A stretch of 64,000 nucleotides of DNA from Spirochaetaceae bacterium (GCA_007118855.1 SKQU01000127.1:5660-69659); one strand, 5' to 3'. Counted from the stretch's first letter, positions 4,893 to 49,053 are shown. Translations and numbers: made by a program. Notes: generated from the letters alone by a model not told the origin.

Positions 4893-4913
4893 CCCCCGAC
4901 TTCCTTCGCGCCT

Positions 4914-4938: not shown

Positions 4939-4985
4939 CGTCGGTCGCAAAGATAGGAGGAACTACGCCGCGCTTTTCGCTACTA

Positions 4986-6534: not shown

Positions 6535-6552
6535 GGCTGGGAGGATCTACAC

Positions 6553-9084: not shown

Positions 9085-9135
9085 GTCACCCCAGGACGAG
9101 GCGCATCAGTATGCGGCGCAGCGGGAGCGTTCGGG

Positions 9136-9342: not shown

Positions 9343-9367
9343 AGTGGGGCGCACCCCCAGCGACGGG

Positions 9368-9931: not shown

Positions 9932-9964
9932 GGGATCGATGGTAGTAGTTGCAGGTGCAAGTGT

Positions 9965-10930: not shown

Positions 10931-10934
10931 CCGT

Positions 10935-11891: not shown

Positions 11892-11992
11892 GGGTGGATT
11901 GTCCGTCACGGCATCGATTTGATCAAGCCCACCAGTTGTGGTACCCTCAGATCACTATCGGCCGGCTCTTTGCGGCCTTACCGTGAGGTTGT

Positions 11993-16739: not shown

Positions 16740-16740
16740 G

Positions 16741-31028: not shown

Positions 31029-31634
31029 TTAGAACGCCTCGGCGAGCTCCGCGAAGCTGAACTCCTGAGCGTTGACGAGCACGCCGCCTTCGGTCGCCGG
31101 CTCTTCGGCGTCGGCGAATCCTGAGAGGTCGATCGCCACACGCCGTGCGGGGTGGGTCTCAGGCTCGTCGTGATCCGCCTCGAGTTCCATCACAAGCCGC
31201 GTCCGCGCGCCGGTTTCTGATTGGAGCAGGATCGTCCCGCTCAGGCGATAGCCGTGGTAGGCCACGGCAAAGGGGTCGTCCTCGGCCACGGCGTAGCGGT
31301 CGAGCGTGATCTCGTAGGTGCCGGCGCCTGAGAGGAAGTCGGCATCCTCGCTCCACGTGAGCGACAGCCGCCCGTCGTCGCTCGAGACAGACCGGTCGGA
31401 CGCCGAAGCAGTGATCGCGAGGTAGAGGGCCTGGGAGGCCACGAGCATCGCATCGGCGACGACCTCGCCGGCCTCGGTCGCCGTGAGCGGCGCCTGCGCC
31501 GGGTCCGGGACCGGGACCGGGACTTCGGGATCATCGGCCGCGCACGAGAGGAGCAGCGCCAGTGCGATGAGTGCGGCGAACGATGTGCGGCTGATGCCTG
31601 GCCGGCTCGCGGTTGGGAGCTCAGAGGCGATCAT
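31029..31634 (-). CDS. Lipoprotein, function unknown
   Basis: 201 aa. Signal peptide plus lipobox (FAALIALALLLS-C). No catalytic motif recognised. Confidence 0.45.
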   Translation of the reverse strand: MIASELPTASRPGISRTSFAALIALALLLSCAADDPEVPVPVPDPAQAPLTATEAGEVVADAMLVASQALYLAITASASDRSVSSDDGRLSLTWSEDADFLSGAGTYEITLDRYAVAEDDPFAVAYHGYRLSGTILLQSETGARTRLVMELEADHDEPETHPARRVAIDLSGFADAEEPATEGGVLVNAQEFSFAELAEAF

Positions 31635-31723
31635 ACGCCGTCCAGTATAGAATCGATCGAGCTGCGCGCCAATGCGTTCCTGGGCACGATCGTCCTCCGC
31701 GGTGCCGCCGGGTAGTATGGCGT

Positions 31724-31951
31724 ATGCGCCCTTTCGAGATCATCATGCTCGTCTGCTTCGGCCTCGCGTGGCCGTTCTCGATCTACAAGAGCGCCACCAC
31801 GCGGCAGATCGGTTCGGCGAGTCTTCCGTTTCTCGTCGCTCTGCTGATCATCCTCTACGCCCTGAACGGAACCATGGTCTCCACTCACATCACACTCTAT
31901 CTGCGTAACCGCGGGTACCACGTCCGTGAGAGTGCCGGGAAGGCGCACTGA
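31724..31951 (+). CDS. Small membrane protein (PQ-loop-like N-terminus), function unknown
   Basis: 75 aa from ATG 31724. Two clear TM helices (IIMLVCFGLAWPFSIY, LPFLVALLIILYAL). A -10-like TAGTAT lies 5 nt upstream of the ATG. Confidence 0.4.
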   Translation: MRPFEIIMLVCFGLAWPFSIYKSATTRQIGSASLPFLVALLIILYALNGTMVSTHITLYLRNRGYHVRESAGKAH

Positions 31952-32013
31952 GAGTCGCGATCCTCTGCGTCAGCAAGTATGGTGCAATGTGGCACGGCGC
32001 GCTCCGCCGGACG

Positions 32014-32541
32014 CTACGGCTCGTCCCGTCGTCCCGGCCGGCGCAAGCCCGCCGGTGGTCCGAGGAGCTCGCTGTATACGACCGCGCGCTGAAGCGGAGA
32101 CAGCGGGGCGACTCTCGCTTCGAGCACCTGTCCAGGAGGGCGCCGCTCAGGCGACACAGACACTCCGAAAGAAACGCCGCCGAGGCGTTCCCGCCTGACG
32201 CCGGCTATCCTGGCGGCATCCTTCAGCTCCTGCTCCAGGGTCTCACGCCGCCTCTGCGGGTAGATCTCTCGCACCGGGCGCGGCGGCTGCGGGCGCGACT
32301 CCTGTAGACGCGGTCTCTGGTTCGCCTGGTCGTTCTCAGGTCGGTCGGAGAGCCGGCCCATGATCGGCTGCGCTTCCGGCCCCTGCGAGTTCGCGCCCGG
32401 GGGAGTCTTCGCGTCGGGAGCGCCCCCTTTGTCCTCCCGTATTGACCGACTCTGGACGGCCCGCCTGCCCATCAGCAGGAGAACCGGCAGCAGGCTGATG
32501 AGCGCGGCGAAGATCAGCGAAAAGATCGCCGGCAGATTCAT
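32014..32541 (-). CDS. Single-TM protein with Pro/Arg/Gln-rich disordered tail, function unknown
   Basis: 175 aa. N-terminal TM MNLPAIFSLIFAALISLLPVLLLMG. Starts 6 nt after the floA stop, so it is the last gene of the NfeD-FloA operon. Confidence 0.4.
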   Translation of the reverse strand: MNLPAIFSLIFAALISLLPVLLLMGRRAVQSRSIREDKGGAPDAKTPPGANSQGPEAQPIMGRLSDRPENDQANQRPRLQESRPQPPRPVREIYPQRRRETLEQELKDAARIAGVRRERLGGVSFGVSVSPERRPPGQVLEARVAPLSPLQRAVVYSELLGPPAGLRRPGRRDEP

Positions 32542-32547
32542 CGATTC

Positions 32548-33561
32548 CTACCCCTGATCCGTCGGCGGCCGGTTGGCGCCGCCCTGACCTTCACCTCCGA
32601 TGCTTTGTCGCATCGATGTATCGGCCTGAACGTTGCGCAGCCGGTAGTAGTCCATGATTCCCAGGTTGCCCTCGCGGAACGCCTCGGCGATCGCCTTGGG
32701 GATCTCCGCCTCGGCGAGCACGACCTTCGCCCGGTTCTCCTGCGTGAGGGCGTGCATCTCCTGCTCGCGGGCGAGCGCGGCGGCGCGCCGCTTCTCGGCC
32801 TCGGCCTGGAAGCGTCGCTTGTCCGCCTCCGCCTGGTCGGCCTGCAACTTCGCCCCGATGTTCTCGCTCACGTCGATGTCCGCGATGTCGATTGAAAGGA
32901 TCTCGAACGCCGTACCGGCGTCAAGGCCCTTCTCCAGCACGCGCTTGGAGATCAGATCCGGGTTCTCGAGCACCGCCTTGTAGTCCTCCGACGAGCCGAT
33001 CGTCGTGACGATGCCCTCGCCGACGCGCGCGATAATCGTCTCTTCGGTTGCCCCGCCGACGAGGCGTTCGATGTTCGCGCGCACCGTGATGCGCACCTTC
33101 ACCTTGAGCTGAATCCCGTCCTTCGCAACCGCATCGATTGCCTGCTTGCCCTTGGTCGCGTCCGGGCAGTCGATCACCTTGGGGTTGACGCTCGTCCTTA
33201 CCGCCTCGAGGACGTCGCGTCCGGCGAGATCGATCGCGGCGGCGCGCTGAAACGGAAGCGGAATGTTCGCCTTGTTCGCGGCGACGAGCGCCTGGCTCAC
33301 GCGCTTCACATCGCCGCCGGCGAGGTAGTGCGTTTCGAGCATATCCGTATCGAGCGGTATCCCCGCCTTCGCGAGCATGATTCTCGCGTCCACGATCGTC
33401 GACGGGTCGACGCGCCGCAGCCACATGCCGATCAACCGGGCCGGACCTACCGGCGCTCCGGAGAGCAGCGCGCGGAACCAGAGACCGAAGAACTTGACGA
33501 ACAGCACAAAGAGGCCAAGTGCGACGATTCCGAGTACGACGTAGAGAATGATAACTTCCAT
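32548..33561 (-). CDS. floA: Flotillin-like protein FloA (SPFH/UPF0365 family)
   Basis: 337 aa. N-terminal hairpin [38 protein letters not shown] typical of FloA/YqfA, an SPFH body and an Ala/Glu-rich coiled coil ([26 protein letters not shown]). Confidence 0.85.
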
Positions 33562-33570
33562 CGGTTCCTC

Positions 33571-34110
33571 CTATTCCTGTGGCTCGGGAGCCTTGCGAAC
33601 GACCACCCGGCTGCCTTCCACGCGGATCACCCGAATCCGGGCCCCGCGCTCAATATAATCTCCTGCCGTCACGACGCTCATCTTCCGGTCACCGAACCGT
33701 GCCGTTCCGGAAGGTCGCAGCACCGTGAGGGCTTCGCCTTCGTCTCCCTCTTCGATGCCGGCGACCGGCAGAGCGATCGAAGCGGCGATATTCACGGCCG
33801 GCGGTTCTTCGTTCCGCCTGCGTGACGACGGCGCGTTGCTGCCGCCGTCGCCGAGGATCAGTCGCCGACCAACCGGTGTCTTCGGGAACACCTTGAGGCC
33901 GAGCACGACGGCGGTGGGCGTCGCGATCAGCGCGGTGAAGAGCACGATCGAGCCGGTTATCACGTCGTGGTGCGCGTACCCGAGCACCACTCCGGCGACG
34001 ATCATCCCGCCCCCGGCGAGTCCGATCAGGCCGGCCGCGGGCACAAAAATCTCCACGTAGATCGCGATAATTCCTATCGCGATCAGCCCGAACGAGACCC
34101 ACAGCTGCAT
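33571..34110 (-). CDS. Short NfeD-family membrane protein (TM region plus C-terminal OB-fold NfeD domain)
   Basis: 179 aa from ATG 34110 (TGATG overlap with the upstream gene). MQLWVSFGLIAIGIIAIYVEIFVP TM bundle. C-terminal LRPSGTARFGDRKMSVVTAGDYIERGARIRVIRVEG matches the NfeD OB pattern. Confidence 0.7.
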   Translation of the reverse strand: MQLWVSFGLIAIGIIAIYVEIFVPAAGLIGLAGGGMIVAGVVLGYAHHDVITGSIVLFTALIATPTAVVLGLKVFPKTPVGRRLILGDGGSNAPSSRRRNEEPPAVNIAASIALPVAGIEEGDEGEALTVLRPSGTARFGDRKMSVVTAGDYIERGARIRVIRVEGSRVVVRKAPEPQE

Positions 34111-35600
34111 CAGCCGATCCTCCTGACGATGATCCGGTTCCCGTTGACCGACGCGATTTCTATGGGCGTCCCCGCCTCGATGTACTCGCCGTCCGACTCC
34201 ACAACCAGCGTATCGTCGGCGAAGTCGGCCTTGCCGGACGGCCGCAGCGGGGTGATCGTGACTCCTTGCTTTCCCAGGTACTCGGCTTCGAGCGAGCTCT
34301 CCTGCACCGTATACCCGGCGGTTGCATCCTGCGCTTCGGCCAGAACGAGCCGCGAAAACGCTCCGAACTTGGGCACGAAGTGCGCGAGCACCCCGAAGGC
34401 GATCAGCGCTCCGAAGATGTTGCCGACCACGATGAGAATATTGCGATGGAACGCGTCCCACTCCCACTCGAAGGTGGGGATGACGAAGGTCTGAAGCGAG
34501 AGCACGAGCGAGACCGCGATGAGGCCGATTCCCGAGATACCGGCGATCCCGAAGCCCGGTATTACGAACACCTCGAGGATGAGGAGTACCGTGCCCAGCA
34601 TGAAGAGCAGCAGCTCCACGGATCCAACCCGGCCGAGCAGGCCGTTCGCCACGAAGATGACCGCGAAGCAGAGGATGCCGACGGTTCCCGGGACGCCGAA
34701 TCCCGGGCTCGTGACCTCCGCGAAAATCGCGATCAGTCCGATCAGGATCAGGAGACTCGTGAGGCCGGCGCTCGTCACGATTGAGACCGCCTGGTCGGCG
34801 GCAGTGGGCTCAAGCCGGACGATCTCGCGTTCCTCGAGCCCGAGGTCGGCAAGGAGCGCGTTCAGGCTTCCCACGGTACCGCGCGAAACCCCGTAGTACT
34901 CCATCTGACCGGCGGTCAGCGAGAGGAGCTTCCCCGCCTCAGAGAGCGTCGGGCCGACCTCCACGGTACTCCCGGCGGCCTCCGCCCTGCGAACGACCGC
35001 ATCCTTCTCGCCGGAGGTCACAACGACGATTTCGCCGTCAATCGTGAGCTCGATCAGCTCGATGTCGAAGTCGACCATTGCCTGGGCGATCGCGACCGGG
35101 TGGTCGTTCTTCTCCGCGAGCGCGGCCATCTGCGTGCGGACGGCGCTCACGGTCTTCTCGTCGGCCGGTTGCGCGCCTTCCGGGCCCTGGATTACCGGCG
35201 CCGCTGCGCCCATGGAGGTGCCGGGCGCCATGTAGATCGCGTCGCAGGCGAGCGCGATGAGCGCGCCCGCGGACCAGCTGACCGCCGTGCCCTCGGCGCG
35301 TACCGGGACGAAGGCTATCGTCTCGATCTCCGTGAGGGCGCCGATGACGGTCGTGATCTGCAGCGCCGAATCCACGCGACCGCCGAAGGTATCGATGTCG
35401 AAAACGATGTGGGTCGCGCCGGCGTCCGCGGCCCGGTTGACCGAACGCCGCAGAAAGACCATGAGACTCGGGTTGATCTCGCCGTGGATGGGCACGACGT
35501 AGACCGGACCCTGCATGTCCGGCGTCTCAGGCGCTGCGGATGTCACGGCCGCGAAGAACAGGGCAGGCACGAGCAGGAAGCGAAGCAGAAACTCTCTCAC
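34110..35600 (-). CDS. Long NfeD-family membrane-bound serine protease (ClpP-fold, STOPP-like)
   Basis: 496 aa. Signal peptide, ClpP/crotonase-like domain (IVFDIDTFGGRVDSAL, SAGALIALACD), several TM helices, and a C-terminal NfeD OB domain (LRPSGKADFADDTLVVESDGEYIEAGTPIEI). Confidence 0.8.
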   Translation of the reverse strand: MREFLLRFLLVPALFFAAVTSAAPETPDMQGPVYVVPIHGEINPSLMVFLRRSVNRAADAGATHIVFDIDTFGGRVDSALQITTVIGALTEIETIAFVPVRAEGTAVSWSAGALIALACDAIYMAPGTSMGAAAPVIQGPEGAQPADEKTVSAVRTQMAALAEKNDHPVAIAQAMVDFDIELIELTIDGEIVVVTSGEKDAVVRRAEAAGSTVEVGPTLSEAGKLLSLTAGQMEYYGVSRGTVGSLNALLADLGLEEREIVRLEPTAADQAVSIVTSAGLTSLLILIGLIAIFAEVTSPGFGVPGTVGILCFAVIFVANGLLGRVGSVELLLFMLGTVLLILEVFVIPGFGIAGISGIGLIAVSLVLSLQTFVIPTFEWEWDAFHRNILIVVGNIFGALIAFGVLAHFVPKFGAFSRLVLAEAQDATAGYTVQESSLEAEYLGKQGVTITPLRPSGKADFADDTLVVESDGEYIEAGTPIEIASVNGNRIIVRRIG

Positions 35601-39071: not shown

Positions 39072-40838
39072 TCAGAGACCCTTCGTGCTCTCAAGCGCGC
39101 TCTCGATAACGTCTTCAGGGTACCCGATCAGCCGCAGGAGCTTGATGGCGTTTCGCGTCTGCACGACGCCCGGGTGAATCTGGTAATCGAAGGAGAGGCC
39201 CTTCTCGTCGGCGCTGTCGGTGAAGTAGTGCAGTGCGTAGCGGTCGGCGACGCCGTTCGCTATGGCCACATCGTGCGTGGCGGCGATCGTGAGCGCCGGA
39301 CGGTCTGCAAGGTAATGGAGGATCGCAACCGACGCGCTCTCGCGCTCGAGCGAATTGGTTCCCGAGAGCAACTCGTCTATGAGCAGCAGAACCGGCGTCT
39401 GCGCCTGGGCCTCCTCGATCATCCGGTAGATGCGCTCGGCCTCGTCGTAGTAGAAACTCTTTCCTTCGGCGAGATCGTCGTGCTTCTCGATCGACGACAT
39501 GACCCGGAATCGCGGAGCGCGGTATGCCTTCGCAAAGGCGTATCCGGCCGTCTGCGCGAAGAGGACGTTGATCCCAACCGTGCGCAGAAAGGTCGACTTG
39601 CCGGCCATGTTGGTTCCGGTCACGATCGCGCCCGGCCGGCGGAGCTCCACCGTATGGGGAACCGCGCGAGCGATCAGTGGATGGTAGGCGCCGGAGAGCT
39701 CGAGGTTCCCATTCTCCAGGATCTCCGCGTCACAGATACGGTTCCTGCGGGACCGGTAGGAGGCGAGCGCATAGAGCGCGTCGATCGACCCGATTCCCTG
39801 GTAGATCGCCCGGAAGGCATCCCGCTCCGCGGTGATGGTACGGATGATTTTGTTGTACGCGATGAGGTCGATCTGAAAGTAGATCTTCACGTAGAGGAGG
39901 ATCGTCTCCATGATATCCCCGGTGAAGGTGGGAGAGGGGCTCGGGGCGCCGGTGAGCAGCCAGCCGAATGCCCGCCGGGCCGGGCCCGTTCGAGAACGAA
40001 GCTCCGGCAGATCGTGCCAGGGCAGGTCCACCGCGATGTTGATCATCCGGCTCAGCACCCGGAGCGCCGGTACGTAGATCGAGACGTGGCGGGCCTTGCG
40101 GTAGTAGATCCACATGTTGCTGACGAAGGTGACGATGATCATGATGATACCGAGCGTGGGATTGACCGCCGCGGCAACGAGAATCGAGGCGATCGCAAGC
40201 CCGCACATCGCGATGAACATGGGGAACAGATCGTCGCTCTCTACCGCGTCGCTCCAGAGGAGGTCCGCCGGGTCCGCGTCACGCTCCTCGCCCACGTAGG
40301 CGAGCGACTGCGCGACTCGCTGCCGAAGCGCCTCGTCGTCGGTGAGTTCCTCGATGAGCCTGGAGCGCTCGCCGATGGTCTCACCCGGCGGCAGCACGTG
40401 CCTGAGCATGCGGTAGAGCTCGTTGCGCCCGGCCATCGTGAAGGCAACGTCGATCCGGTCGTGGATCTCGTCCATTCCCAGATCGTTCCACGTGCGATCG
40501 TCCACGAATCCCAGGCTCGGGTCGCGGGTGTAGTCACCGTATTGCGATCGCAACTGCTCGAACCGCGTGTAGGGAACGCGCTCGACCGACGGACCGTACG
40601 CTCGCCACCTCGCGCGTCCCCGCACGCGGGCATCGGCTACCGGAACCGCGCGGCGGAGCGTGAAGTAGAGCGAGGCCGGCACGACCGCACTCACCATCAG
40701 CCAGTACCAGTCCGGCGAGAGGTTGTAGCCGATCGAGCCGAAAACGGCGATCGTCGCGAGCGTGAGGACACCGCAGCTCGTTCGCAGAAAGCGAAGTCGG
40801 GAGGGGCGGAACCGTGAGATGCTGGTTGTGAGGCTCAT
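39072..40838 (-). CDS. Membrane-anchored MutS-related ATPase (MutS domain V only)
   Basis: 588 aa with about 4 TM helices in the N-terminal half. C-terminal MutS ABC-ATPase: Walker A GTNMAGKSTFLRTVG, SFYYDEAERI, Walker B LLLIDELLSGTNSLE, ATHD. No mismatch-binding domain I recognised. Confidence 0.75.
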   Translation of the reverse strand: MSLTTSISRFRPSRLRFLRTSCGVLTLATIAVFGSIGYNLSPDWYWLMVSAVVPASLYFTLRRAVPVADARVRGRARWRAYGPSVERVPYTRFEQLRSQYGDYTRDPSLGFVDDRTWNDLGMDEIHDRIDVAFTMAGRNELYRMLRHVLPPGETIGERSRLIEELTDDEALRQRVAQSLAYVGEERDADPADLLWSDAVESDDLFPMFIAMCGLAIASILVAAAVNPTLGIIMIIVTFVSNMWIYYRKARHVSIYVPALRVLSRMINIAVDLPWHDLPELRSRTGPARRAFGWLLTGAPSPSPTFTGDIMETILLYVKIYFQIDLIAYNKIIRTITAERDAFRAIYQGIGSIDALYALASYRSRRNRICDAEILENGNLELSGAYHPLIARAVPHTVELRRPGAIVTGTNMAGKSTFLRTVGINVLFAQTAGYAFAKAYRAPRFRVMSSIEKHDDLAEGKSFYYDEAERIYRMIEEAQAQTPVLLLIDELLSGTNSLERESASVAILHYLADRPALTIAATHDVAIANGVADRYALHYFTDSADEKGLSFDYQIHPGVVQTRNAIKLLRLIGYPEDVIESALESTKGL

Positions 40839-40871
40839 CGTGGTGAGCCTACCATCCCTCGCCGGCTTATG

Positions 40872-41159
<288 letters not shown>

Positions 41160-41286: not shown

Positions 41287-41817
41287 ATGGCAGGAAACGT
41301 GGAGAAGCTACCCGAACGGGTAAGGGAGCACGTGCGACAGCTCGTTGAGCCGGCCGGTCTGTCCGGCGTCGAGAATGCCGAGGAGCTGCTCGCCGAAGGG
41401 TGGATGGAGAAACACCGCGCTTTTGAGCGTCACACCGCCGAGCGCGGGATGGCCCCGGCCGAGACCTTTGCCGCGGGCGAGTTTGGCGGCGCCCTCGCGA
41501 TGACCTACTCGGGCTCGATCGTGAGCGTCGGTCCCATGATCGACGGGGAGCGGGACGTCGCGTACGCGAGTATCGGGGCCCGGCGCGACGTTCCGCAGAT
41601 GTCGGTCAAGCAGGACAGCCGGCTCGCGTCGGACATCGCCGTCGATCAGGTGATCGAGTTTGCCGAAGGCCCGGTGCAGAAGACCTCGCCCGTCTTCGCG
41701 ATCGCGGTCTTCCAGAAGGCACTGCCGGCGGCAAAGGAGCAGGCTGCACTCGTCGAGGTGACGCAGGTGCTGACCGAGCGGTTCGTCGACATCAACAACG
41801 ATACGCTGCACGGTTAG
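41287..41817 (+). CDS. Hypothetical protein, first gene of the kinase/FHA cluster
   Basis: 176 aa from ATG 41287. No motif recognised. Ends 10 nt before the kinase start. Confidence 0.4.
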
Positions 41818-41827
41818 CGGACCACCC

Positions 41828-43555
41828 ATGGCACGGACCCCGGACCAGATCGGCAAGTACTCGATCGTCGATCAAATCGGCAAGGGTGGGATGGGGATGG
41901 TCTACAAGGCCGAGCACCCCACGCTCGACCGGCTTGTGATCCTCAAGAAGCTGAACATTTCCGGCGACCCGGTGATGCGCGAGCGGTTCCGTCGTGAGGC
42001 GGCGATCATGATCGACTTCCGCACCGACTACGTGGTCGACGTCTATGACCACTTCCGTCACGGGTCGTCGGACTACATCGTGCTCGAGTACATCGACGGG
42101 GTCTCGCTCGAGGAGATCCTTGCGCGCGAACGGTACCTGCCGAGCGATCTCGCGCTCTTCATCGCGCGCGACGTCTTTCGCGGGCTCGAGTACGTGCACG
42201 GCAAGGGCGTCGTGCACCGCGACGTGAAGCCGGGGAACGTCGTCATCGCCCGCGACGGCTCGGTGAAGCTGCTCGACTTCGGGATCGCCTCACGGGGCGG
42301 CGAGTTCCAGGACGAGCTGACGCGAGAGGGCATGACCCTCGGCACCGTCGCGTACATCGCGCCCGAGCAGATCGAGCGCAGTCGGGACGTGGACCGGCGG
42401 GCGGACATCTACTCGGCCGGCGCCACGCTCTACGAGATGGTGACCGGCGCGAAGGCGTTCTCCGGCGGGTTCAACCCGGAGACGGTCAACCGGATCCAGC
42501 GCGGCCGCTATCGCCACCCGCGGAGACTCAATCCCCGCGTCTCGCGGCCGGTTGTCAGGGTCATCAGGCGCTGCATGCGCCGCAAGCCCCGGCGGCGGTT
42601 CCAGCATGCCGCGGATGTCGTGGGGCGGCTCGACGCGCTCTTCCGCAGGGAGGACGAGGCGCGGATGCGCCGACGTCTTTCCGCGCTCGCCGAAGGCAGA
42701 CCCGAGAGCGTCGAGCGGCCGCGCCGGAAGCATCGCTCCTGGATGCGACCCGTCGTCGCGGGGGTGCTCATCCTGCTCGTCGCGGGGGCGCTCGCCTGGT
42801 GGACCGGCGAGGCTCAGGGCTTGATCCTCGGGCGCACGCACGCGCTCGTGCGCGCGGAGATACGCCTGCGCAAGACCGATCGCTCCGTGGACGAGCACCT
42901 GATCCGCATCGAGCTCGCCCGCGAGGAGAACGGCCGGTTTGCCGACGTGCCGTTGCGGTTGCCGTTGATGCGCACGGTCGACGCGCTCGAGACCCCTGAC
43001 TACGTCGTCGTTCGATCGCGCCTGCTGACCATGCCTGCCGGGCGCTACCGGGTGACGGTCGCCGTAGAGGATTCGGTTGACCGGAAGATCCTGACGCTGG
43101 ACTCCGTCGCCACTGCGGGCGAGACCCAGGTCATTGCAGTGCGATGGGACCCGGTTCCGCCGGCGTCGTTCACGCTCGATCTCGCGGTTCACGATGCCCG
43201 GACCGCAGCCCCGGTGGACGAGGTGAAGGTCGAAGCATGGCTGAACGATGAGTGGCGGGTGCTGAACCGACGAGGCACCGGCTGGGAGACTCCGGCGCGA
43301 ACGGACCCGGCTCGGCAGCTGACCGCGGACGGCGCGCTGACGGCGGACGGCGAGGAGATTCACCCGCTGCGGGGAATCGGATCGGCCTACCTCTCGTTGG
43401 CCCGCGCCGTGCGCTTCGCGCCGGGAGATACCGTGCGGCTGCGTCTAGCGCACCCGGACTACCATGAGGAGCAGGTCTCCCTGGAGACCGACCGCCTCAC
43501 GCGACAGGTCACGGTGGAGGTTGCGCTTCTGCCTCGCACCGAGGAGGAGAGATGA
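41828..43555 (+). CDS. Transmembrane Hanks-type Ser/Thr protein kinase with extracytoplasmic beta-rich (PEGA-like) region
   Basis: 575 aa. GKGGMGMVYKA, VILKKL (VAIK-like), HRDVKPGNVVI, DFGIAS, YIAPE. One TM (WMRPVVAGVLILLVAGALAWW) around residue 300, then about 250 aa outside. Confidence 0.9.
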   Translation: MARTPDQIGKYSIVDQIGKGGMGMVYKAEHPTLDRLVILKKLNISGDPVMRERFRREAAIMIDFRTDYVVDVYDHFRHGSSDYIVLEYIDGVSLEEILARERYLPSDLALFIARDVFRGLEYVHGKGVVHRDVKPGNVVIARDGSVKLLDFGIASRGGEFQDELTREGMTLGTVAYIAPEQIERSRDVDRRADIYSAGATLYEMVTGAKAFSGGFNPETVNRIQRGRYRHPRRLNPRVSRPVVRVIRRCMRRKPRRRFQHAADVVGRLDALFRREDEARMRRRLSALAEGRPESVERPRRKHRSWMRPVVAGVLILLVAGALAWWTGEAQGLILGRTHALVRAEIRLRKTDRSVDEHLIRIELAREENGRFADVPLRLPLMRTVDALETPDYVVVRSRLLTMPAGRYRVTVAVEDSVDRKILTLDSVATAGETQVIAVRWDPVPPASFTLDLAVHDARTAAPVDEVKVEAWLNDEWRVLNRRGTGWETPARTDPARQLTADGALTADGEEIHPLRGIGSAYLSLARAVRFAPGDTVRLRLAHPDYHEEQVSLETDRLTRQVTVEVALLPRTEEER

Positions 43556-44433
43556 GTCTGTTCATGCGGCGTATCATCGTGCTCGCGGCCGGGGTTGTGG
43601 GCGGGCTGCTCGCCTGGCCCTTCGCCGAGCTCCTGCTCGGCGCCCAGCCGGGCTTCCCCTCGTACCTGTTCTTCATGGTGACCACCGGCTCGGTCTACGG
43701 AGCCTTCTTCGGTCTCGCCTTCGGAAGCGTCGACGGCATTACCGCCGGCGTGGGCGCCAGGAAGTGGCTCGGACTCGGGACCGGAGCCGCCGCCGGCCTG
43801 CTTGCCGGGGCGACCGGTGTGCTCGTAGGTCAGGCGGTCTATCTCGCGCTTGGCCAGTACCTGCTGCAGCGGCCGGACGCCCGTCTCGCCGGCTTCGTGA
43901 TCGCGCGCGGGCTCGGATGGTCGGTGACGGGCGCCGTGATCGGCGCGGTGGAGGGGCTGCGGCTGCGCTCCGGGAAACGTGCCGGGATCGGCGCGCTCGG
44001 CGGTTTCGTTGGGGGGCTTTCCGGGGGGCTTCTCGTCGAGTACGGGATGCACGTGTTCGCGGATGCGTGGTGGGTCCGTCCGGTGGGCACCGTGGTGCTC
44101 GGTCTGCTGCTCGGGGCAGGCTTCGCGGCGATCGAGCGCGGGTTCCTGCTCGGGCGACTCGCGCTCCTGACCGGAGCCCTTCGCGGGCGTGAGTACCCGC
44201 TTCCTCCGGGCCGGACGACGATTGGAGACTCACTCGGCGACACGGTCACCATTGCCAACTACACCGAGGTCTCGCCGAGGCACGCGGTGGTGGTGGGCGA
44301 TCGGGCCGGGCTCAGGATCGAGCGGGGGCGCGGTGAGCTGCGGGTGAACGAGGAGCCGGTCGACCGGGCCGAGCTCAAGTACGATGATGTGATCGACGTG
44401 GGCACGGCACGCTTCTACCTGAAGCGGCCGTGA
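43552..44433 (+). CDS. Polytopic membrane protein with C-terminal FHA domain
   Basis: 293 aa, ATGA overlap with the kinase. Gly-rich TM helices (GLGTGAAAGLLAGATGVLVG, GIGALGGFVGGLSGGLLV). C-terminal FHA pattern GRTTIGDS...VSPRHAVVV...LRVNEEPV...DDVIDVGTARFYL. Confidence 0.8.
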   Translation: MSLFMRRIIVLAAGVVGGLLAWPFAELLLGAQPGFPSYLFFMVTTGSVYGAFFGLAFGSVDGITAGVGARKWLGLGTGAAAGLLAGATGVLVGQAVYLALGQYLLQRPDARLAGFVIARGLGWSVTGAVIGAVEGLRLRSGKRAGIGALGGFVGGLSGGLLVEYGMHVFADAWWVRPVGTVVLGLLLGAGFAAIERGFLLGRLALLTGALRGREYPLPPGRTTIGDSLGDTVTIANYTEVSPRHAVVVGDRAGLRIERGRGELRVNEEPVDRAELKYDDVIDVGTARFYLKRP

Positions 44434-44456
44434 CCGGACGGTCGAGGAGGTATCCC

Positions 44457-45863
44457 ATGATTCGACGGGCAATGATGCTGATCGTGCTCTGCGCCGCGGT
44501 CGCGGCGAGCGTCCCGGCCCAGCGCCTGGCGGTCGGCCAGATCGATACCGGCCGCCTCCTGTTCGGTCAGCGGGTCGACCTCTATCTGTCGCTCGACCTG
44601 CCGGCGGGCCGCACGATCGACCCGGAGCGTCTGGGAGAGCTTCTGCGCGTGTACGAGTCGGGTGACGGCAGACTGTACCACGAGGTCGACGCCGTACTCG
44701 ATGTCGTGCCGGTGCGCAGCCTTGACGCGCCGCTCTCCTTCTACATGCTCGTCGACTATTCCGGCAGCATGTACGATGAGCATGTGCCCGGAAGGCCCGA
44801 CCTTCGGCGCATCGACGCCGCGCGTCAGGCGATCCGTCACTTCGTCAACAACATCACCCACGAGCGGGACCGGGTCGGCCTCGCCCTGTTCGGCACCCGG
44901 TATCACCAACTCGCGCCTCCGGGCCGGGACAAGGCGCGCCTTGGTCCAATCCTCGACGACATCGAGCGGCCGCCTCGAGCCGAGGGGTATACCGAGCTCT
45001 ACGCCGCGCTCGTCGAGTCGGCCTCGGATGCGGCAGACATCGGTCGTCGGACCGTCATCGTTCTCTCCGACGGCGAGAACTACCCCTACTCGATCTACGA
45101 GGGCGAGCCGCATCCGGAGCACGGCGAGCGGCTGTTCACCTATACCGAGGCTGTTGATGCATTCCAGCGCGAAGGACTGAGCCTTTTCGCCATCCACTAC
45201 GGAGACGATGAGGAAGATCCGCACCTTGGGCGGATCGCCGAACAGACCGGCGGACGGGTGTACCGTGCCGTGACGACGGACGAGCTTGCACGGGTCTACC
45301 AGGACATCCGCTCGGTGCTGCTCGAAGAGTACCGGGTCTCCTACACCGCGACGATGATCCCGTCGCAGCGGCGCATCGTGCGGGTGACCTACCGTGACGC
45401 GGATGTCGACCTTCGCGTCGAGCGGCCGTACTTCGCCGGGACGCTTTTCGCCGGGCCAGAGGAGGCGCCCGCGCCTGCACCCATCATCGTGTTCCTCGCG
45501 GGGATCCTCGGTCTTGCGGCGCTTCTGGCGGTCGCCATACGGGCAGGCCGCGCCGGGACGAGTCTGGTGCTGCTCGATTCCGGGGGGGCCGCCGCGCTCT
45601 CGAAGACGGTTGTGCTCGGCGACGGGGAGACCGTGATCGGCGCGAGCCCGGACGCGGACCTGACGATCGCCGGGAGTCCGGCGGTCGGCGAACGGCACGC
45701 GGTCGTGACGTACGAGCCGAAGCGCGGCGAGTACACAATCGTCAGCGACACACCGGTCCGGGTGAACAACAAACCGGTGACCCGCAGGATCCTCAAGCGC
45801 GGCGACGTGATCAACATCGAGGGCACCGTCTTCGCATTTGATGAGCCTGACGAGAAGGAATGA
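44457..45863 (+). CDS. Signal peptide - vWA domain - TM - FHA domain protein
   Basis: ATG 44457 with RBS GAGGAGG. MIDAS residues VDYSGSM...GYTELY...LSDGEN. TM PIIVFLAGILGLAALLAVAI. C-terminal FHA (TVIGASPDADLTI...ERHAVVTYE...VRVNNKPV...GDVINIEGTVFAF). Confidence 0.8.
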   Translation: MIRRAMMLIVLCAAVAASVPAQRLAVGQIDTGRLLFGQRVDLYLSLDLPAGRTIDPERLGELLRVYESGDGRLYHEVDAVLDVVPVRSLDAPLSFYMLVDYSGSMYDEHVPGRPDLRRIDAARQAIRHFVNNITHERDRVGLALFGTRYHQLAPPGRDKARLGPILDDIERPPRAEGYTELYAALVESASDAADIGRRTVIVLSDGENYPYSIYEGEPHPEHGERLFTYTEAVDAFQREGLSLFAIHYGDDEEDPHLGRIAEQTGGRVYRAVTTDELARVYQDIRSVLLEEYRVSYTATMIPSQRRIVRVTYRDADVDLRVERPYFAGTLFAGPEEAPAPAPIIVFLAGILGLAALLAVAIRAGRAGTSLVLLDSGGAAALSKTVVLGDGETVIGASPDADLTIAGSPAVGERHAVVTYEPKRGEYTIVSDTPVRVNNKPVTRRILKRGDVINIEGTVFAFDEPDEKE

Positions 45864-45923
45864 GCGATCGAAAAGCGTCGGGCCCGGCAGACGACGGGGC
45901 GGTTCTCTGAGTACGTTCTTCCG

Positions 45924-47360
45924 GTGAACGGATCTGAGCCCACGAAGATACGCTACGGCATCGCGATCGCCGCGATCGCGGTTCTCGCCGCGTGCGCTCC
46001 TGAGATCGTGGAAGAGCGCTTCGAGCCCGCGACCTCGCATCAGGAGTACCGCGCCGCGCTCGAGCTCCTCGACCTGGACGACACGGCGCTCGGTCAATCG
46101 TGGATCGCCGCGGCCGAGGCCGCGGTCGCCGAGCCTCTGACCGTCGAGACACCCTTCGAGGAGGTTGTGCTCTTCGATCCCCATGAGCCGCGGGCGATCG
46201 GGTACGAGTTCGTCGCCGAACGCGGCCGGGCCGTAACCGTCTCCATGGAGACCGGGATCGAGCGCTACTACGCAGACCTCTTCCGGGTGGAGGCCGGATC
46301 CGGGCTCGTCATGGTCGCAAGCCGGCCCGCCGAATCCTCCGAAATCCGGTTCGAGCCGCGGCGCGACGGGCGGTATCTCCTTCGGGTGCAGCCGGAGCTC
46401 CTGCGTGGCGGTCGGGTGGTTGTCCGGATCGTCGCGACCGCCTCGCTCGCCTTTCCGGTTGAGGCGGTCGGGCCCGGGCAGATTCTGAGCTACTTCGGCG
46501 ACGGACGCGACGGCGGACTCCGCATACACGAGGGGGTGGACATCTTCGCCCCTCGCGGGACACCGCTTCTCGCGGCGAGCGATGCGGTGGTGCACCGTGT
46601 GGGGGTTCGCGACCGAGGCGGCAATATCGTCTCACTCTACGACGAGAAGCGCGACCTGTTGCTCTACTACGCCCATCTGGAGGAGCAGATGGTGCGGCAG
46701 GGCGAGCGCGTGACGGCCGGGCAGGTCATCGGTACCGTCGGCAATACCGGGAACGCGATCACGACGCCACCGCACCTGCATATTGGCGTCTATCAGGGCG
46801 GATGGCAGCACGCCGTGGATCCGTGGAACTACTTCGTCGATCCGCCGCTCACCGTTCCGCAACCGGCGCTGCACGAGGATCTCCTTGGATCGTGGCACCG
46901 TCTGGCGGCCGGGACCTCCTTGCGGGTCGGCCTGGAGGCGCCGGCCGTGGGGCCGCGCTGGATCAACCGGAATCCGCTCCTTCGAGTCGAGGGCGCCGGG
47001 GACAGCCGGGGGTCCGGCCGGTTGGAGAGCGCCGACGCCGGTTCCGTGACGCCCCCGATCCGCGACGCCGGCGGGACCCGCGACATGCCCGCCGACACTC
47101 CGCTTCTCGTCGTGGGGGCGGCAGGATCGGTCGTCCGGGTTCGAACGCCCGACGGCGATTACGGCTACATGGATCCGTCGCCGCTGGCCTCCGCGACCGA
47201 GATGCGTCTCCTCGAGCGCGAGGTCGGCCTGCGCGACCCGGTCACCGGCGATCTCTTCCGCCGGCTTTCCGGCGGCGGAGCCGTCGAGTACCTGGGGTCG
47301 TACGAGGGGCGGATCTACCTGCGCACCGAAGACGGGAGGGTCGGGTTCGTCGACGCTTGA
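45924..47360 (+). CDS. Lipoprotein M23 peptidase with extra N- and C-terminal domains
   Basis: 478 aa, GTG start. Lipobox IAVLAA-C. Canonical M23 motifs HEGVDIFAPRGTPL, YYAHLEE, PPHLHIGVY. C-terminal about 120 aa is SH3-like (VVRVRTPDGDYGYM...IYLRTEDGRVGFV). Confidence 0.8.
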   Translation: MNGSEPTKIRYGIAIAAIAVLAACAPEIVEERFEPATSHQEYRAALELLDLDDTALGQSWIAAAEAAVAEPLTVETPFEEVVLFDPHEPRAIGYEFVAERGRAVTVSMETGIERYYADLFRVEAGSGLVMVASRPAESSEIRFEPRRDGRYLLRVQPELLRGGRVVVRIVATASLAFPVEAVGPGQILSYFGDGRDGGLRIHEGVDIFAPRGTPLLAASDAVVHRVGVRDRGGNIVSLYDEKRDLLLYYAHLEEQMVRQGERVTAGQVIGTVGNTGNAITTPPHLHIGVYQGGWQHAVDPWNYFVDPPLTVPQPALHEDLLGSWHRLAAGTSLRVGLEAPAVGPRWINRNPLLRVEGAGDSRGSGRLESADAGSVTPPIRDAGGTRDMPADTPLLVVGAAGSVVRVRTPDGDYGYMDPSPLASATEMRLLEREVGLRDPVTGDLFRRLSGGGAVEYLGSYEGRIYLRTEDGRVGFVDA

Positions 47361-47371: not shown

Positions 47372-47950
47372 CTACGGCGCCGCGTGGTCTTCGATCGTCT
47401 CCACGATTGTTATGAAGGCGTCCTGGTCTATGACGCCTTCCTCGCGCAGCCATTCAATGCGCCTCCGCTCGAGCGGAGCCGGTCGAGCGACGTCGATCCT
47501 TGCGTACCGGTCACGCAGGTAGGCATCGCGACGGGCGAAGAGTGTACGGCGGAAGTCCACGTATTCCCGGCGCGTCGGTCGGCCCCACAGCAGTCGAAAC
47601 ACGCGACCGTCTGCGAGCGGATACACCTCGTAGCGAACTCCGGTGAGCCGGTAGGCCGCGTAGCATGCCCCGGCGACGAGCGCCCAGAGGATGGCGACCC
47701 GCGGGTCGAGGCTGACCAGAAAACCGAACGCCACCGTTCCGACGACCAGGATGCCGAAGTAGATCGCCACGTTACGGAAGAAGAGATTGGACCGATAGTA
47801 GTCGGTGGTCCGACGACACAGCAGTTCGTACGGTACTGCGGCCGAGCCTTCGCTGCCGCGAACCCTGGACGCGTAGGTGAACTGTGTGTCGTCGAGCTCA
47901 ACCCGGTACTCTTCCCTGCCGCGTCGCTGCTCGAATACGCGCTGGTTCAT
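47372..47950 (-). CDS. Two-TM membrane protein, function unknown
   Basis: 192 aa. Central hairpin VAIYFGILVVGTVAFGFLV / ILWALVAGACYAAY flanked by Arg-rich soluble segments. ATGA-type 4-nt overlap with the upstream gene. Confidence 0.45.
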   Translation of the reverse strand: MNQRVFEQRRGREEYRVELDDTQFTYASRVRGSEGSAAVPYELLCRRTTDYYRSNLFFRNVAIYFGILVVGTVAFGFLVSLDPRVAILWALVAGACYAAYRLTGVRYEVYPLADGRVFRLLWGRPTRREYVDFRRTLFARRDAYLRDRYARIDVARPAPLERRRIEWLREEGVIDQDAFITIVETIEDHAAP

Positions 47951-49053
47951 CGGTGGTTCCCTCTGCCCCGCTTCCCGGTTCTTCGCGCGCGGGCGCTACC
48001 AATCGCGGTGAAGGCACGCACCGCCGCGGACCGCACAAGTATCCCGGCTCCCGAGAGATAGAGGATCGGGATGAGGGTGGCTTCCGTCAAGAGCAATCCG
48101 GGCGGGGCCGCCGCGGAGGCGATCGCGACGGCGACCTGGGTGAGGGCCGCGATGCCGGCTACGGAGAGGACGAGCGCCATGGCGATACGGGCTGCCTGAA
48201 CGCGCCGCATCAGGCCCACGGTGAGCAGTGCGAAGACGATCAACTGGACGGTGTGGGTCACGAGGGAACTCGTGACTCCGCCGCCCGCCGTTCGGATCAC
48301 CAGCGAGAGCGACAGCAGAACCGCGCTCAGTCCGACCGAGAGGCTCCACAGGCGTCCGTCGTGGCGCAACGCCTGCTGGAGACGGGCGTACCGCTCAGGG
48401 CTGATCCACCGCGGCAGGCGTGGTGTGCGGCGTTCGGCCCGATCCGGCAAGGGCATCTGGACATGAGGAGGATCGGGGTGGAACGATGCGCCCGGGTAGA
48501 TTCGAAGCGGCGGGGGTACGCGGCTGGTGCTCGAGTCGGACTCGAGGAGCTGCGGATAGATGCCGTAGGGCCGGTCGGGCCCTACCATCGCGTCCACGAG
48601 GATCATGCGCCGTACCCGGTCAGGCACCCCGGCACGCGCTTCGATGAGGACCGAATCGCCGGGAACGAGGGTGACGTTTGCGGCAATCGGGTACCGGTAG
48701 TTCGGCACACCGGTACCCAGGTGCTGGCGCTGGATCGCGGTTGCGCCGAAGACGCCGCCCGGTTCGTCGGCGACGTAGATGACCTCGCCACCGGAGCTCG
48801 AGACCGTGGCCGGCACCACGTGCAACTCCGGATCGCGCAGGTCGTCATCGCTCTGGGAGTACTGGTAGAGCAACGTCAGCCCCGACTGTATGGGGACCGA
48901 CACCGTGTGATCGTAGGGGTTGGTGAGCGTGTACCGGACGATGATCTGCGGGCCGGGGGCGTCGCGCATGACCTCGATCGATTCCACACGTTTCTCGACC
49001 ACCTGTCCGTCTGCCGAGATGGGAGTGTAATACGAGCCCTCACCGCGAAACAT
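47947..49053 (-). CDS. Protein with N-terminal beta-rich soluble domain and C-terminal 4-TM region, function unknown
   Basis: 368 aa. No signal peptide. TM helices after residue 235 or so (LWSLSVGLSAVLLSLSLVI, QLIVFALLTVGLM, MALVLSVAGIAALTQVAVAIA, LIPILYLSGAGILV). Confidence 0.45.
   Translation of the reverse strand: MFRGEGSYYTPISADGQVVEKRVESIEVMRDAPGPQIIVRYTLTNPYDHTVSVPIQSGLTLLYQYSQSDDDLRDPELHVVPATVSSSGGEVIYVADEPGGVFGATAIQRQHLGTGVPNYRYPIAANVTLVPGDSVLIEARAGVPDRVRRMILVDAMVGPDRPYGIYPQLLESDSSTSRVPPPLRIYPGASFHPDPPHVQMPLPDRAERRTPRLPRWISPERYARLQQALRHDGRLWSLSVGLSAVLLSLSLVIRTAGGGVTSSLVTHTVQLIVFALLTVGLMRRVQAARIAMALVLSVAGIAALTQVAVAIASAAAPPGLLLTEATLIPILYLSGAGILVRSAAVRAFTAIGSARARRTGKRGRGNHR

Follow-up and report, generated by a model that had tools for sequence, protein, structure and literature searches.

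A conserved spirochaete gene cluster is an uncharacterised variant of the kinase, FHA, vWA and phosphatase theme

Several described systems combine Hanks-type kinases with FHA and vWA domains. In the H1-T6SS of Pseudomonas aeruginosa, the kinase PpkA (with a vWA domain within the kinase protein), the PP2C phosphatase PppA and Fha1, a canonical phosphothreonine (pThr) reader, are encoded in the T6SS locus. The archaellum network of Sulfolobus comprises ArnA (ZnF-FHA), ArnB (vWA, beta-sandwich and C-terminal domain), ArnC/ArnD and PP2A, and phosphorylation alters the state of its FHA–vWA complex, which acts on transcription regulators (PMC12852372, PMC7472852, PMC5300886); ArnA, ArnB, ArnC and PP2A establish that a transcription-linked switch can be built from an FHA domain, a vWA domain, a PPP phosphatase and a Hanks kinase (PMC12852372, PMC7472852). 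In Deinococcus radiodurans, DRA0331–DRA0334 is described in the abstract of a preprint as a compact operon of vWA, STPK, FHA and KI-FHA-PP2C proteins (bioRxiv 10.64898/2026.01.23.701218). The Esr and MoxR-vWA ternary systems place a vWA domain, a kinase/phosphatase pair and an FHA output in one module, the output in many cases being joined to domains that bind nucleic acids (PMC13622651, PMC7159879). Here we describe a gene cluster that is an uncharacterised spirochaete variant of this kinase, FHA, vWA and phosphatase theme, in a form that is reduced in the stretch of DNA that we analysed (64,000 nucleotides from a Spirochaetaceae bacterium, GCA_007118855.1; hereafter, the window).

The cluster and the gene that follows it form five open reading frames on the plus strand at positions 41287–47360 of the window:

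g1, 41287..41817, plus strand: 176-aa cytoplasmic protein; no match in Pfam, PADLOC or PDB
g2, 41828..43555, plus strand: Hanks-type Ser/Thr kinase; Pkinase 1e-49
g3, 43552..44433, plus strand: Gly-rich six-helix membrane domain and C-terminal FHA fold; Yop-YscD_cpl 5e-8
g4, 44457..45863, plus strand: vWA, transmembrane segment (TM) and cytoplasmic degenerate FHA; VWA_2 8e-12, VWA 1.5e-10
g5, 45924..47360, plus strand: lipoprotein M23 metallopeptidase; Peptidase_M23 2e-23

The junctions are a 10-nt gap (g1/g2), an ATGA overlap (g2/g3), a 23-nt gap (g3/g4; a 4-nt overlap if g4 starts at GTG 44430) and a 60-nt gap (g4/g5). The reading frames are confirmed, as are the junctions between them and the main motifs that they encode: an earlier note on this DNA had described five same-strand genes with these junctions, and our ORF calls agree, as do Pfam and a motif scan with its identification of a Hanks kinase, a vWA domain with an intact MIDAS, M23 zinc motifs and FHA folds. 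Its description of a tightly packed cluster without known characterisation also holds, as we found no published study of the cluster in the literature.

We compared the top 80 matching loci (a further 268 loci lie outside this set), and counted gene order in the 54 spirochaete species-level loci among them that have full upstream sequence, defining the conserved module as the same-strand order g1, kinase, g3, g4. This order is kept in the window and in all 54 species, with g1 upstream of the kinase every time. Linkage of g1 to g4 is far beyond chance, and the cluster is inherited stably, as a single locus. Independent gene calls of a JGI contig have the same layout, in which genes overlap or nearly abut. 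The expectation that the order would extend well beyond close relatives was therefore correct; the proposed unit of five genes found no such support, because an M23 gene lies 3′ of g4 in only 2/54 species, both around 82% identical to the window. From this distribution, g5 appears to be a recent neighbour, a bystander outside the conserved module. Comparison of the sequences shows an invariant core that consists of g1, the membrane-bound Hanks kinase, g3 and g4.

The g1 protein defines a small and so far uncharacterised domain family, which comprises only 168 clusters among 1.84 billion representatives. Its conserved motifs are W39-x2-K42, T73-Y-S-G-S77, R89, Y93-x-S95, R99-x-D-V-P103, S134 and F166-x3-N170, and motif conservation indicates strong purifying selection on the domain in both paralogues (the second is described below). 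An AF2 model (pLDDT 79) had no Foldseek match in PDB or BFVD to hint at a biochemical activity. In one g4 orthologue (P0242), which is encoded beside a g3 homologue, a g1 domain replaces the FHA domain.

The g2 protein is a Hanks-type Ser/Thr kinase, with a kinase domain at residues 1–280 (Pkinase 1.2e-49) and all five catalytic motifs intact (GKGGMG18, VILK37, HRDVKPGN130, DFG150 and APE178). The juxtamembrane segment (residues 255–304) is basic and lacks Thr, and a single TM at 304–328 leads to a periplasmic domain of 247 aa that is evolving fast: median identity of the kinase domain across loci is 55%, whereas an ectodomain match could be detected in just 10/75 loci, with around 25% identity. 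This ectodomain has no Pfam match in the window even at E ≤ 10; in the relative L071, matches to CarboxypepD_reg (E = 0.003) and PEGA (0.17) are both below the cut-off. A PknB_PASTA_kin match (243 bits versus a 450-bit cut-off) covers the kinase domain only, and Pfam and NCBIfam found no PASTA domain. In a variant locus (L083), g3 and g4::g1 occur with an adenylate/guanylate cyclase and without the kinase, which suggests that the kinase may be an input that can be exchanged, and not the core of the module.

The AF2 model of g3 (pLDDT 90.9) consists of six long helices, which make up the membrane domain (residues 1–197), and an FHA domain. Gly makes up 20.5% of the first 200 residues, which contain 25 Gxxx[GAS] motifs, and 24 of the 26 invariant Gly residues are within the membrane domain, for which Foldseek found no structural match. 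The g4 protein (468 aa in the database gene call, P0001) has a signal peptide or anchor, a periplasmic beta-domain, a vWA domain, a TM at 336–366 and a cytoplasmic FHA domain. Its vWA domain carries a MIDAS (DYSGS100 in the window), of which D100, S102, S104, T179 and D205 are invariant in 20 sequences, and the nearest solved vWA domains are Bat-type. For three labels of the earlier note, Pfam matches were below the cut-off or absent: the PEGA-like ectodomain; the SH3-like tail of g5, for which SH3_YKFC_2nd is sub-threshold (E = 0.084); and the Pfam glycine zipper of g3, for which the Gly-zipper_YMGG match (E = 0.003) reaches 17.7 of the required 28.9 bits.

Both C termini have the FHA fold, by definition an 11-stranded beta-sandwich, and both also match the Pfam family Yop-YscD_cpl. 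That of g3 aligns with the FHA domains of GarA, FhaA, EmbR and YscD at TM scores of 0.8–0.9 (Foldseek), and that of g4 matches the FhaA FHA domain by profile. Neither has the Gly-Arg, Ser-x-x-His and Asn of a canonical phosphothreonine-binding FHA domain: the Arg, Ser and Asn positions are D, S and a gap in the g3 of the window and A, G and T in its g4. Among orthologues, g3 has the canonical Arg in 15/65, the Ser in 6/65 and the Asn in none, and g4 has none of the three in any of 80 sequences. Owing to the lack of these residues, the two domains are probably not pThr readers, and the earlier proposal of two membrane-tethered pThr readers, which also has to contend with a Thr-free juxtamembrane segment in the kinase, finds no support. 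Because several species fuse g3 and g4 into one protein of around 760 aa, comparison indicates that the two probably work as one membrane unit, with a predicted periplasmic MIDAS vWA head and two cytoplasmic FHA-fold domains.

Most relatives encode more than this core. A PP1-like metallophosphoesterase lies between g1 and the kinase in 45/54 species, a divergently transcribed g1 paralogue fused to an HU/IHF DNA-binding domain is present in 37/54, and 12/54 have a small canonical FHA protein; in L071, the three match Pfam Metallophos, Bac_DNA_binding (2e-13) and FHA (5e-15). Pfam Metallophos is found in 6/8 members of this putative phosphatase family, in which D34-x-H36, G71-D72 and G131-N-H-E134 are invariant (PPP phosphatases are defined by GDxHG, GDxxDRG and GNHE) and for which the PDB sequence matches, although weak (E = 0.013–0.8), are all PP1, PP5 or BSU1. 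The HU domain is reached by 38/41 ORFs of the g1 paralogue, and the small FHA protein has Arg, Ser and Asn in 14/14 cases. Searches with the L071 proteins (tblastn) found none of the three in the window, where a mere 10 nt separates g1 from the kinase, and no PP2C or metallophosphoesterase was matched among 48 large ORFs scanned across it. Absence of the phosphatase falls in four clades on the g4 tree, from which the phosphatase-free state is judged to be derived and to have arisen at least four times. The comparison points to a full ancestral set that adds the metallophosphoesterase and the g1::HU/IHF protein to the core and, in some lineages, the canonical small FHA protein. The absence of an eraser and of a DNA-binding output, which the earlier note took as the design of the system, is at odds with the in-cluster metallophosphoesterase and adjoining g1::HU/IHF gene of most relatives. 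As a statement about the window, the absence of PP2C was confirmed among the ORFs scanned and that of a DNA-binding output was not: a ROK/HTH regulator, unlinked to the cluster, is present at 21152–22351.

We tentatively propose, at somewhat less than an even chance, that g1–g4 represent, in reduced form, a transmembrane signalling module that works by Ser/Thr phosphorylation and is specific to Spirochaetota. The g3/g4 complex would be an envelope receptor and scaffold, and its degenerate FHA domains, by analogy with SctD/YscD or EssC, would be phospho-independent docking modules that tether g1-domain proteins at the membrane. The kinase, with signal specificity given by its fast-evolving ectodomain, would alter the state of the g1 domain, for which the conserved T-Y-S-G-S hairpin is the candidate site, and the phosphatase would reset it; in this way, access of the g1::HU protein to the nucleoid would be controlled. 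As the phosphatase, the HU fusion and the small FHA protein are absent from the 64-kb window, the module in this genome may use unlinked partners, or g1 alone. Several observations count against the proposal: the membrane FHA domains without the pThr triad, which leave the kinase without an evident link to the scaffold, the kinase-free L083, the lack of all three partner genes, and with them of the proposed output, in the window, and a g1 fold without structural matches.

The degenerate FHA domains would also suit a different arrangement, in which g3 and g4 are structural parts of a spirochaete envelope-spanning assembly, with these domains as fixed interfaces, the kinase merely tuning the assembly and g1 as a cytoplasmic assembly factor. 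Both domains lack the pThr triad and have better scores with Yop-YscD_cpl than with FHA, the structural matches include YscD and PscD, the g3/g4/g1 core persists without a kinase in L083, and a MIDAS vWA is typical of stable metal-dependent adhesion. However, secretion, pilus or flagellar genes have no consistent linkage to the cluster among the 80 loci (flagellar rod genes lie 3′ of it in L081 only), and the recurrence of phosphatase and HU-domain partners suggests that signalling is reversible and that its output is linked to DNA; we consider a structural assembly unlikely. Somewhat less likely still is the five-gene unit of the earlier note, with an M23 endopeptidase governed by the kinase, FHA and vWA proteins. 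Such a unit would regulate cell-wall cleavage or morphogenesis through contact of the periplasmic vWA or kinase ectodomain with the enzyme. The g5 product is predicted to be an active peptidase M23 (1.9e-23), with an intact lipobox (LAAC) and HxxxD and HxH zinc ligands (HEGVD202 and HLH284) and with LytM, lysostaphin and ShyA among its PDB matches. Its gene follows g4 on the same strand after only 60 nt without an intervening terminator-like site, although none was found anywhere in the region, and contact among all three periplasmic modules is conceivable. The g4–M23 arrangement is retained in the two closest genomes (L001 and L002), but among the best 80 loci these are the only ones with an M23 homologue within 8 kb of the cluster, which does not support M23 as the terminal gene of the unit. 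It is missing from L003–L005 (62–64% identical), and in L003 and L004 the same downstream genes lie directly 3′ of g4; no other peptidoglycan enzyme family is conserved beside the cluster, and the window carries a second M23 gene at 9965–10966.

A conflict system had also been suggested; it could be anti-phage, anti-epibiont or abortive, with envelope sensing that leads to membrane perturbation by the Gly-rich g3, and we regard it as very unlikely. In its favour, the ectodomain of the kinase evolves very fast, the g3 membrane domain has no structural match, and in the Esr pathway of Actinomycetales, modules of vWA, kinase, phosphatase and FHA proteins act as threat sensors (PMC13622651). The kinase domain matches the PADLOC kinase models PD-T4-6 and mad6, yet these PADLOC-DB 2.0 matches are to a generic kinase domain rather than to system-specific models of known anti-phage defence, and the other eight proteins tested have none. 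The invariant order in 54/54 loci, inheritance at a single stable locus, flanks of housekeeping genes (window ORFs scanned), the lack of a MoxR, beta-propeller, toxin or nuclease partner, and conserved phosphatase and HU-like partners all suggest regulation instead. A membrane-anchored FHA protein and a Hanks kinase are shared with the actinobacterial-type division cluster (FhaA/FhaB-PstP-RodA-PbpA-PknA/PknB), and the g4 FHA domain resembles that of FhaA in sequence and fold; the locus might then be a fragment of such a cluster with the other genes elsewhere. This mycobacterial-type origin is effectively refuted, and we give it almost no weight: no PP2C, FtsW/RodA (SEDS) or PBP gene is present among the window ORFs scanned, the kinase lacks PASTA domains, the phosphatase of relatives is a metallophosphoesterase and not PP2C, and beyond the partner genes of the module itself no gene family is found near the cluster in more than 8 of the 80 loci. 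For the earlier note, a fragment of the standard FHA-PP2C-STK-FtsW/PBP cluster would have refuted its reading, and in this respect that reading holds.

The signalling module that we favour can be placed among known systems by its components. With PpkA/PppA/Fha1 it shares a membrane Hanks kinase, a periplasmic vWA domain and FHA domains at the inner membrane; it is not the T6SS threonine phosphorylation pathway, as its vWA domain is on a separate protein, PP2C is lacking, its FHA domains are degenerate, and T6SS families are found neither in the window nor in the gene calls of L081 and L083. The DRA0331–DRA0334 operon also unites a vWA protein, a Ser/Thr kinase and FHA with a phosphatase; as described in the abstract, this eraser is a PP2C with its own FHA domain and the FHA domains are canonical, and the abstract makes no mention of a g1 domain, an HU fusion or a polytopic protein like g3. 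The Esr and MoxR-vWA systems depend on a MoxR AAA+ ATPase together with a beta-propeller (or VMAP) sensor at the surface, and neither MoxR nor a propeller is found in or beside the cluster in the window, L071, L081 or L083; the sole AAA+ protein of the window is a distant ClpB/ClpC-type ATPase (6553–9084). SctD/YscD (T3SS) and EssC (T7SS) have membrane-tethered cytoplasmic FHA folds that lack pThr residues and serve as protein interfaces. Yop-YscD_cpl is the best Pfam score of g3 and g4, and YscD and PscD are among the fold matches; unlike these systems, the cluster has no linked secretion-system genes, and the domain order of g4 is reversed, with the periplasmic domain first and the FHA domain last. 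The solved vWA domains closest in sequence to g4 are those of Bat proteins (BatA/BatB; 4rck, 4jdu and 3ibs), although the NCBIfam match to Leptospira BatA is weak (24.8 bits versus a 380-bit family cut-off), the cluster lacks MoxR, DUF58 or BatC/D partners and, to our knowledge, Bat proteins carry no FHA domain. The Arn network likewise has FHA, vWA and a Hanks kinase, and the eraser in relatives is, as there, not PP2C but a metallophosphoesterase; this is a likeness without shown sequence-level orthology. Arn proteins are soluble proteins of the cytoplasm, and the phosphorylated C-terminal domain of ArnB is described as a ligand of the ArnA FHA domain. In the spirochaete cluster, by contrast, the vWA domain belongs to a membrane protein and lies in the periplasm, the FHA domains are degenerate and tethered to the membrane, and a new domain, g1, is an obligate partner, either by itself or in fusion with HU.

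The conserved core of this cluster is four genes, not five, and the M23 peptidase gene at its 3′ end is a bystander. The earlier note had described five ORFs on the plus strand; these ORFs, their junctions and their main motifs are borne out by ORF coordinates, Pfam searches and a motif check.

Genes of the cluster in the window
41287–41817, plus strand: g1, cytoplasmic protein of 176 aa; no Pfam family
41828–43555, plus strand: g2, Hanks kinase of 575 aa; Pfam Pkinase, 1e-49
43552–44433, plus strand: g3, membrane protein of 293 aa; Pfam FHA-type domain at the C terminus
44457–45863, plus strand: g4, vWA protein of 468 aa (477 aa from GTG at 44430); Pfam VWA/VWA_2 and a C-terminal FHA-type domain
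45924–47360, plus strand: g5, M23 lipoprotein of 478 aa; Pfam Peptidase_M23, 2e-23

From g1 to g5, the genes are separated by a 10-nt gap, an ATGA overlap, a 23-nt gap (or a 4-nt overlap) and a 60-nt gap. The kinase is intact, with GKGGMG, VILK, HRDVKPGN, DFG and APE motifs and one transmembrane segment (residues 304–328). Glycine makes up 20.5% of residues 1–200 of g3. The g4 protein has a signal peptide, an intact DYSGS MIDAS (the metal site of the vWA domain) and a transmembrane segment at residues 336–366, and g5 has an LAAC lipobox and HEGVD and HLH motifs. The labels ‘PEGA-like’, ‘SH3-like’ and Pfam Gly-zipper are unconfirmed, as their matches are below threshold or lacking. No terminator-like site was found anywhere in the region by a promoter and terminator scan, which was uninformative.

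The cluster is flanked by housekeeping genes (exonuclease I, a MutS-domain protein, a SEC-C protein, peroxiredoxin, TCA-cycle enzymes and hydrogenase subunits). Directly upstream and divergent from g1 (39072–41159, minus strand) are genes for a small SEC-C-motif protein and a 588-aa protein, the sole domain of which is a C-terminal MutS domain V ATPase. Elsewhere in the window are two FtsX/MacB-type permeases with an ABC ATPase (229–3559), and a FloA flotillin-like protein (E = 1e-153) adjoining a three-domain NfeD protein (32548–35600, minus strand), a standard membrane-microdomain pair. Three stretches (22351–24729, minus strand; 15819–17730, plus strand; 31029–32541, minus strand) hold ORFs of 792, 306, 329, 201 and 175 aa with coding-like GC3 and no Pfam family at E ≤ 0.001. 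At 9965–11909 (minus strand), the gene of a second M23 peptidase (333 aa) overlaps that of a 324-aa protein with only a weak coiled-coil-type match; the two, unrelated to the cluster, may be an EnvC/NlpD-like pair.

We scanned one genome per species for g4 relatives and found 348 loci that encode one. The best 80 of these are all from Spirochaetota, including Alkalispirochaeta, Sediminispirochaeta, Treponemataceae and Leptospirales MAGs, and the nearest relatives are MAGs from soda-lake sediment, which suggests a spirochaete of that kind as the source of the window. Protein relatives of g4 are numerous and carry generic annotations only; all named sources are spirochaetal. The window proteins were mapped onto the best 80 loci, and gene order was counted in the 54 with at least 6.8 kb of sequence upstream of g4. 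In all 54, g1, the kinase, g3 and g4 occur in the same order, and an M23 gene lies directly 3′ of g4 in only two (L001 and L002, both approximately 82% identical to the window). The downstream flank, which encodes two membrane proteins of 192 and 368 aa without a Pfam family (47372–49053, minus strand), is kept in L001–L004; in L003 and L004 (62–63% identity) it follows straight after g4, so that M23 stands between g4 and this pair only in the window, L001 and L002. The L005 sequence stops too soon after g4 for its flank to be visible. The MutS/SEC-C upstream flank is kept only in the window’s own clade (L001, L002, L004 and L005), and no other flanking gene family is common to more than 8 of the 80 loci. 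Because of this distribution, we conclude that the conserved unit stops at g4 and that M23 is a recent neighbour. The tightly linked cluster of the earlier note is real and uncharacterised, but it is not a five-gene unit.

Relatives carry additional genes. The spacing between g1 and the kinase is around 1 kb in most of them, and at L071, on a complete chromosome, this gap contains the gene of a calcineurin-like metallophosphoesterase of 308 aa. The relatives’ enzyme has invariant D-x-H, G-D and G-N-H-E motifs, and six of eight diverse members score above the Metallophos cut-off of Pfam; the only PDB sequence matches, all of them weak (E = 0.013–0.8), are to PP1, PP5 or BSU1 Ser/Thr phosphatases. 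Upstream and divergent at L071 is the gene of a 284-aa protein, g1::HU, which consists of a g1 paralogue (N-terminal 175 residues) and a C-terminal HU/IHF domain (Bac_DNA_binding, 2e-13); the alignment extends to the HU domain in 38 of 41 g1-paralogue ORFs. In one clade, the gene of a 123-aa canonical FHA protein (FHA, 5e-15) adjoins g1::HU. On a JGI contig, gene calls made independently show this layout again, with overlapping genes. The putative phosphatase is present in 45 of the 54 loci, g1::HU in 37 and the small FHA protein in 12.

None of these three genes was found in the 64-kb window by tblastn, and Pfam detected neither a PP2C nor a metallophosphoesterase among 48 ORFs spanning it, so that neither search revealed a phosphatase away from the cluster. 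When g4 is placed on a neighbour-joining tree, the loci without the phosphatase are spread over four separate clades and the root is inferred to have had the gene, so the lack of an eraser is a derived reduction. The lack of g1::HU is also the rarer state among relatives. Thus, the earlier statement that there is no phosphatase and no DNA-binding output stands for these genes in the window, but not as the design of the system: the absence of the phosphatase here, and probably that of g1::HU, is a lineage-specific reduction.

The FHA domains of g3 and g4 from all loci were aligned with the small FHA protein (a GarA segment was included in the first alignment as a guide only). All 14 sequences of the small FHA protein carry the canonical Gly-Arg, Ser-x-x-His and Asn. 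Among 65 g3 sequences, 15 have the Arg and 6 the Ser, and no g3 sequence has the Asn; all three residues are missing from the 80 g4 sequences. At the Arg, Ser and Asn positions, g3 of the window reads D, S and a gap, and its g4 reads A, G and T. The fold predicted for the g3 domain is certainly that of an FHA domain: the AF2 model (pLDDT 90.9) superposes on the FHA domains of GarA, FhaA and YscD with TM scores of 0.8–0.9. All 50 Foldseek matches listed are FHA-domain structures, and none has a counterpart of the helical membrane part. The Arg and Ser of FHA domains touch the phosphate directly, and we know of no pThr binding by FHA domains that lack them (YscD/SctD and EssC). Given these residue losses, the g3 and g4 domains are probably docking modules, and the ‘two membrane-tethered pThr readers’ proposed earlier are probably not readers. 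The kinase juxtamembrane segment (residues 255–304) contains no Thr, which removes the docking site proposed there and makes pThr docking on it unlikely. The cluster is a further case of FHA folds without pThr-binding residues that are still tied to a kinase.

Searching 1.84 billion representative proteins with a g1 profile recovered only 168 clusters. Family members are approximately 176 or 290–300 aa in length, with rare fusions to vWA-TM or to DUF2442 (P0179). In P0310 (451 aa), the g1 domain is C-terminal and the N-terminal part is FHA-like by eye, without a Pfam match. Both paralogue classes keep W39-x2-K42, (T)YSGS 73–77, R89, Y93-x-S95, R99-x-DVP and F166-x3-N170. For g1, no significant match came from Pfam, NCBIfam, a PDB profile search or Foldseek (PDB and BFVD); we set aside as noise a FliH match (NCBIfam E = 0.0015, 18 versus 235 bits).

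Fusions of g3 and g4 into a single protein of around 760 aa occur in at least six loci and nine database clusters (L025, L028, L031, L038, L069 and L080; L081, 10001–12322); the order of their parts is Gly-rich helices, FHA, TM, vWA, TM, FHA. For one fusion, P0058, the alignment with g3 covers residues 1–289 (38% identity), after which the protein runs on into g4. The topology is consistent: the first FHA domain is cytoplasmic after six g3 helices, the g4 signal sequence is then a TM helix that runs outward, the vWA domain is periplasmic and the last TM brings the chain back to the second FHA domain. The g4 orthologue P0242 (33% identity over ectodomain and TM) has a g1 domain in place of the cytoplasmic FHA, plus a 125-aa tail of no named kind. 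It is encoded at 8001–10106 of L083, in a low-GC (30%) variant without a kinase (4595–10106), where its neighbours are the genes of a HAMP-adenylate/guanylate cyclase and a g3 homologue. On the opposite strand, 2 kb downstream, is a 7TMR-DISM-SpoIIE (PP2C) gene. The g3–g4 and g4::g1 fusions indicate that g1, g3 and g4 form one functional unit, and suggest an exchangeable role for the kinase as a signalling input. Relative to the window proteins, median identity outside the window’s own clade is 55% for the kinase domain, 41% for the g4 ectodomain and 40% for g1. The kinase ectodomain (42812–43552), which has no Pfam match, could be detected in just 10 of 75 loci, with around 25% identity, and is the fastest-evolving part of the module; the MIDAS residues of g4 are invariant. 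Thus, the variable element is the periplasmic domain of the kinase and the vWA head is conserved.

We tentatively favour a scheme, which we would put at somewhat below an even chance, in which g3 and g4 would act as envelope receptor and scaffold, their FHA folds docking g1-domain proteins the state of which is switched by the kinase and the PP1-like phosphatase. Most species would use the nucleoid protein g1::HU as their output; in this genome, the module may run on unlinked partners or on g1 alone. A bolder and rather unlikely extension is that g1 is a new type of signalling module coupling an envelope receptor to the nucleoid, in a spirochaete-specific pathway that bypasses classical transcription factors. 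A periplasmic MIDAS-vWA/FHA complex of g3 and g4 would then hold or free the chromosome-binding protein g1::HU under control of the Hanks kinase and PP1-like phosphatase, with standalone g1 as a paralogous competitor.

Other explanations are improbable to differing degrees. A structural assembly with SctD-like FHA domains would fit the superposition on YscD and the degenerate triads, and we regard it as unlikely. Control of M23 by the cluster, suggested by adjacency in the window, is less likely still, and synteny rules out M23 as a module member. A conflict system is very improbable, as PADLOC models of known defence systems match the generic kinase domain only. The kinase and FHA modules could also recall a fragment of an actinobacterial division cluster, an explanation to which we give almost no weight.

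To our knowledge, hardly any work has addressed Ser/Thr kinase signalling in spirochaetes, and we found no published study of a spirochaete FHA/vWA/kinase cluster. This module is one of few kinase clusters kept across free-living Spirochaetota lineages. Defining its true gene set, with a putative phosphatase, an HU-fusion partner and an uncharacterised domain family, yields a concrete, testable system and averts a misleading tie to peptidoglycan hydrolysis.

The cluster varies the known kinase/FHA/vWA/phosphatase theme in a new way that is specific to the phylum, and it includes one uncharacterised domain family. It lacks at least one defining feature of the PpkA/PppA/Fha1 pathway of T6SS, of the actinomycete Esr pathway (PMC13622651), of the MoxR–vWA ternary systems (PMC7159879) and of the Deinococcus DRA0331–0334 operon as its preprint abstract describes it (bioRxiv 10.64898/2026.01.23.701218); nor is it the same cluster as the ternary systems of Kaur et al. 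The closest analogue in logic is Sulfolobus ArnA/ArnB/ArnC/PP2A, which combines an FHA protein, a vWA protein, a Hanks kinase and a PPP phosphatase and forms a complex that depends on phosphorylation and affects transcription (PMC12852372, PMC7472852). The Arn network is soluble and its FHA domain canonical, whereas the cluster described here is membrane-embedded and its g3 and g4 FHA domains are degenerate. With it, the archaeal ArnA/ArnB FHA–vWA switch gains a membrane-embedded counterpart from bacteria.
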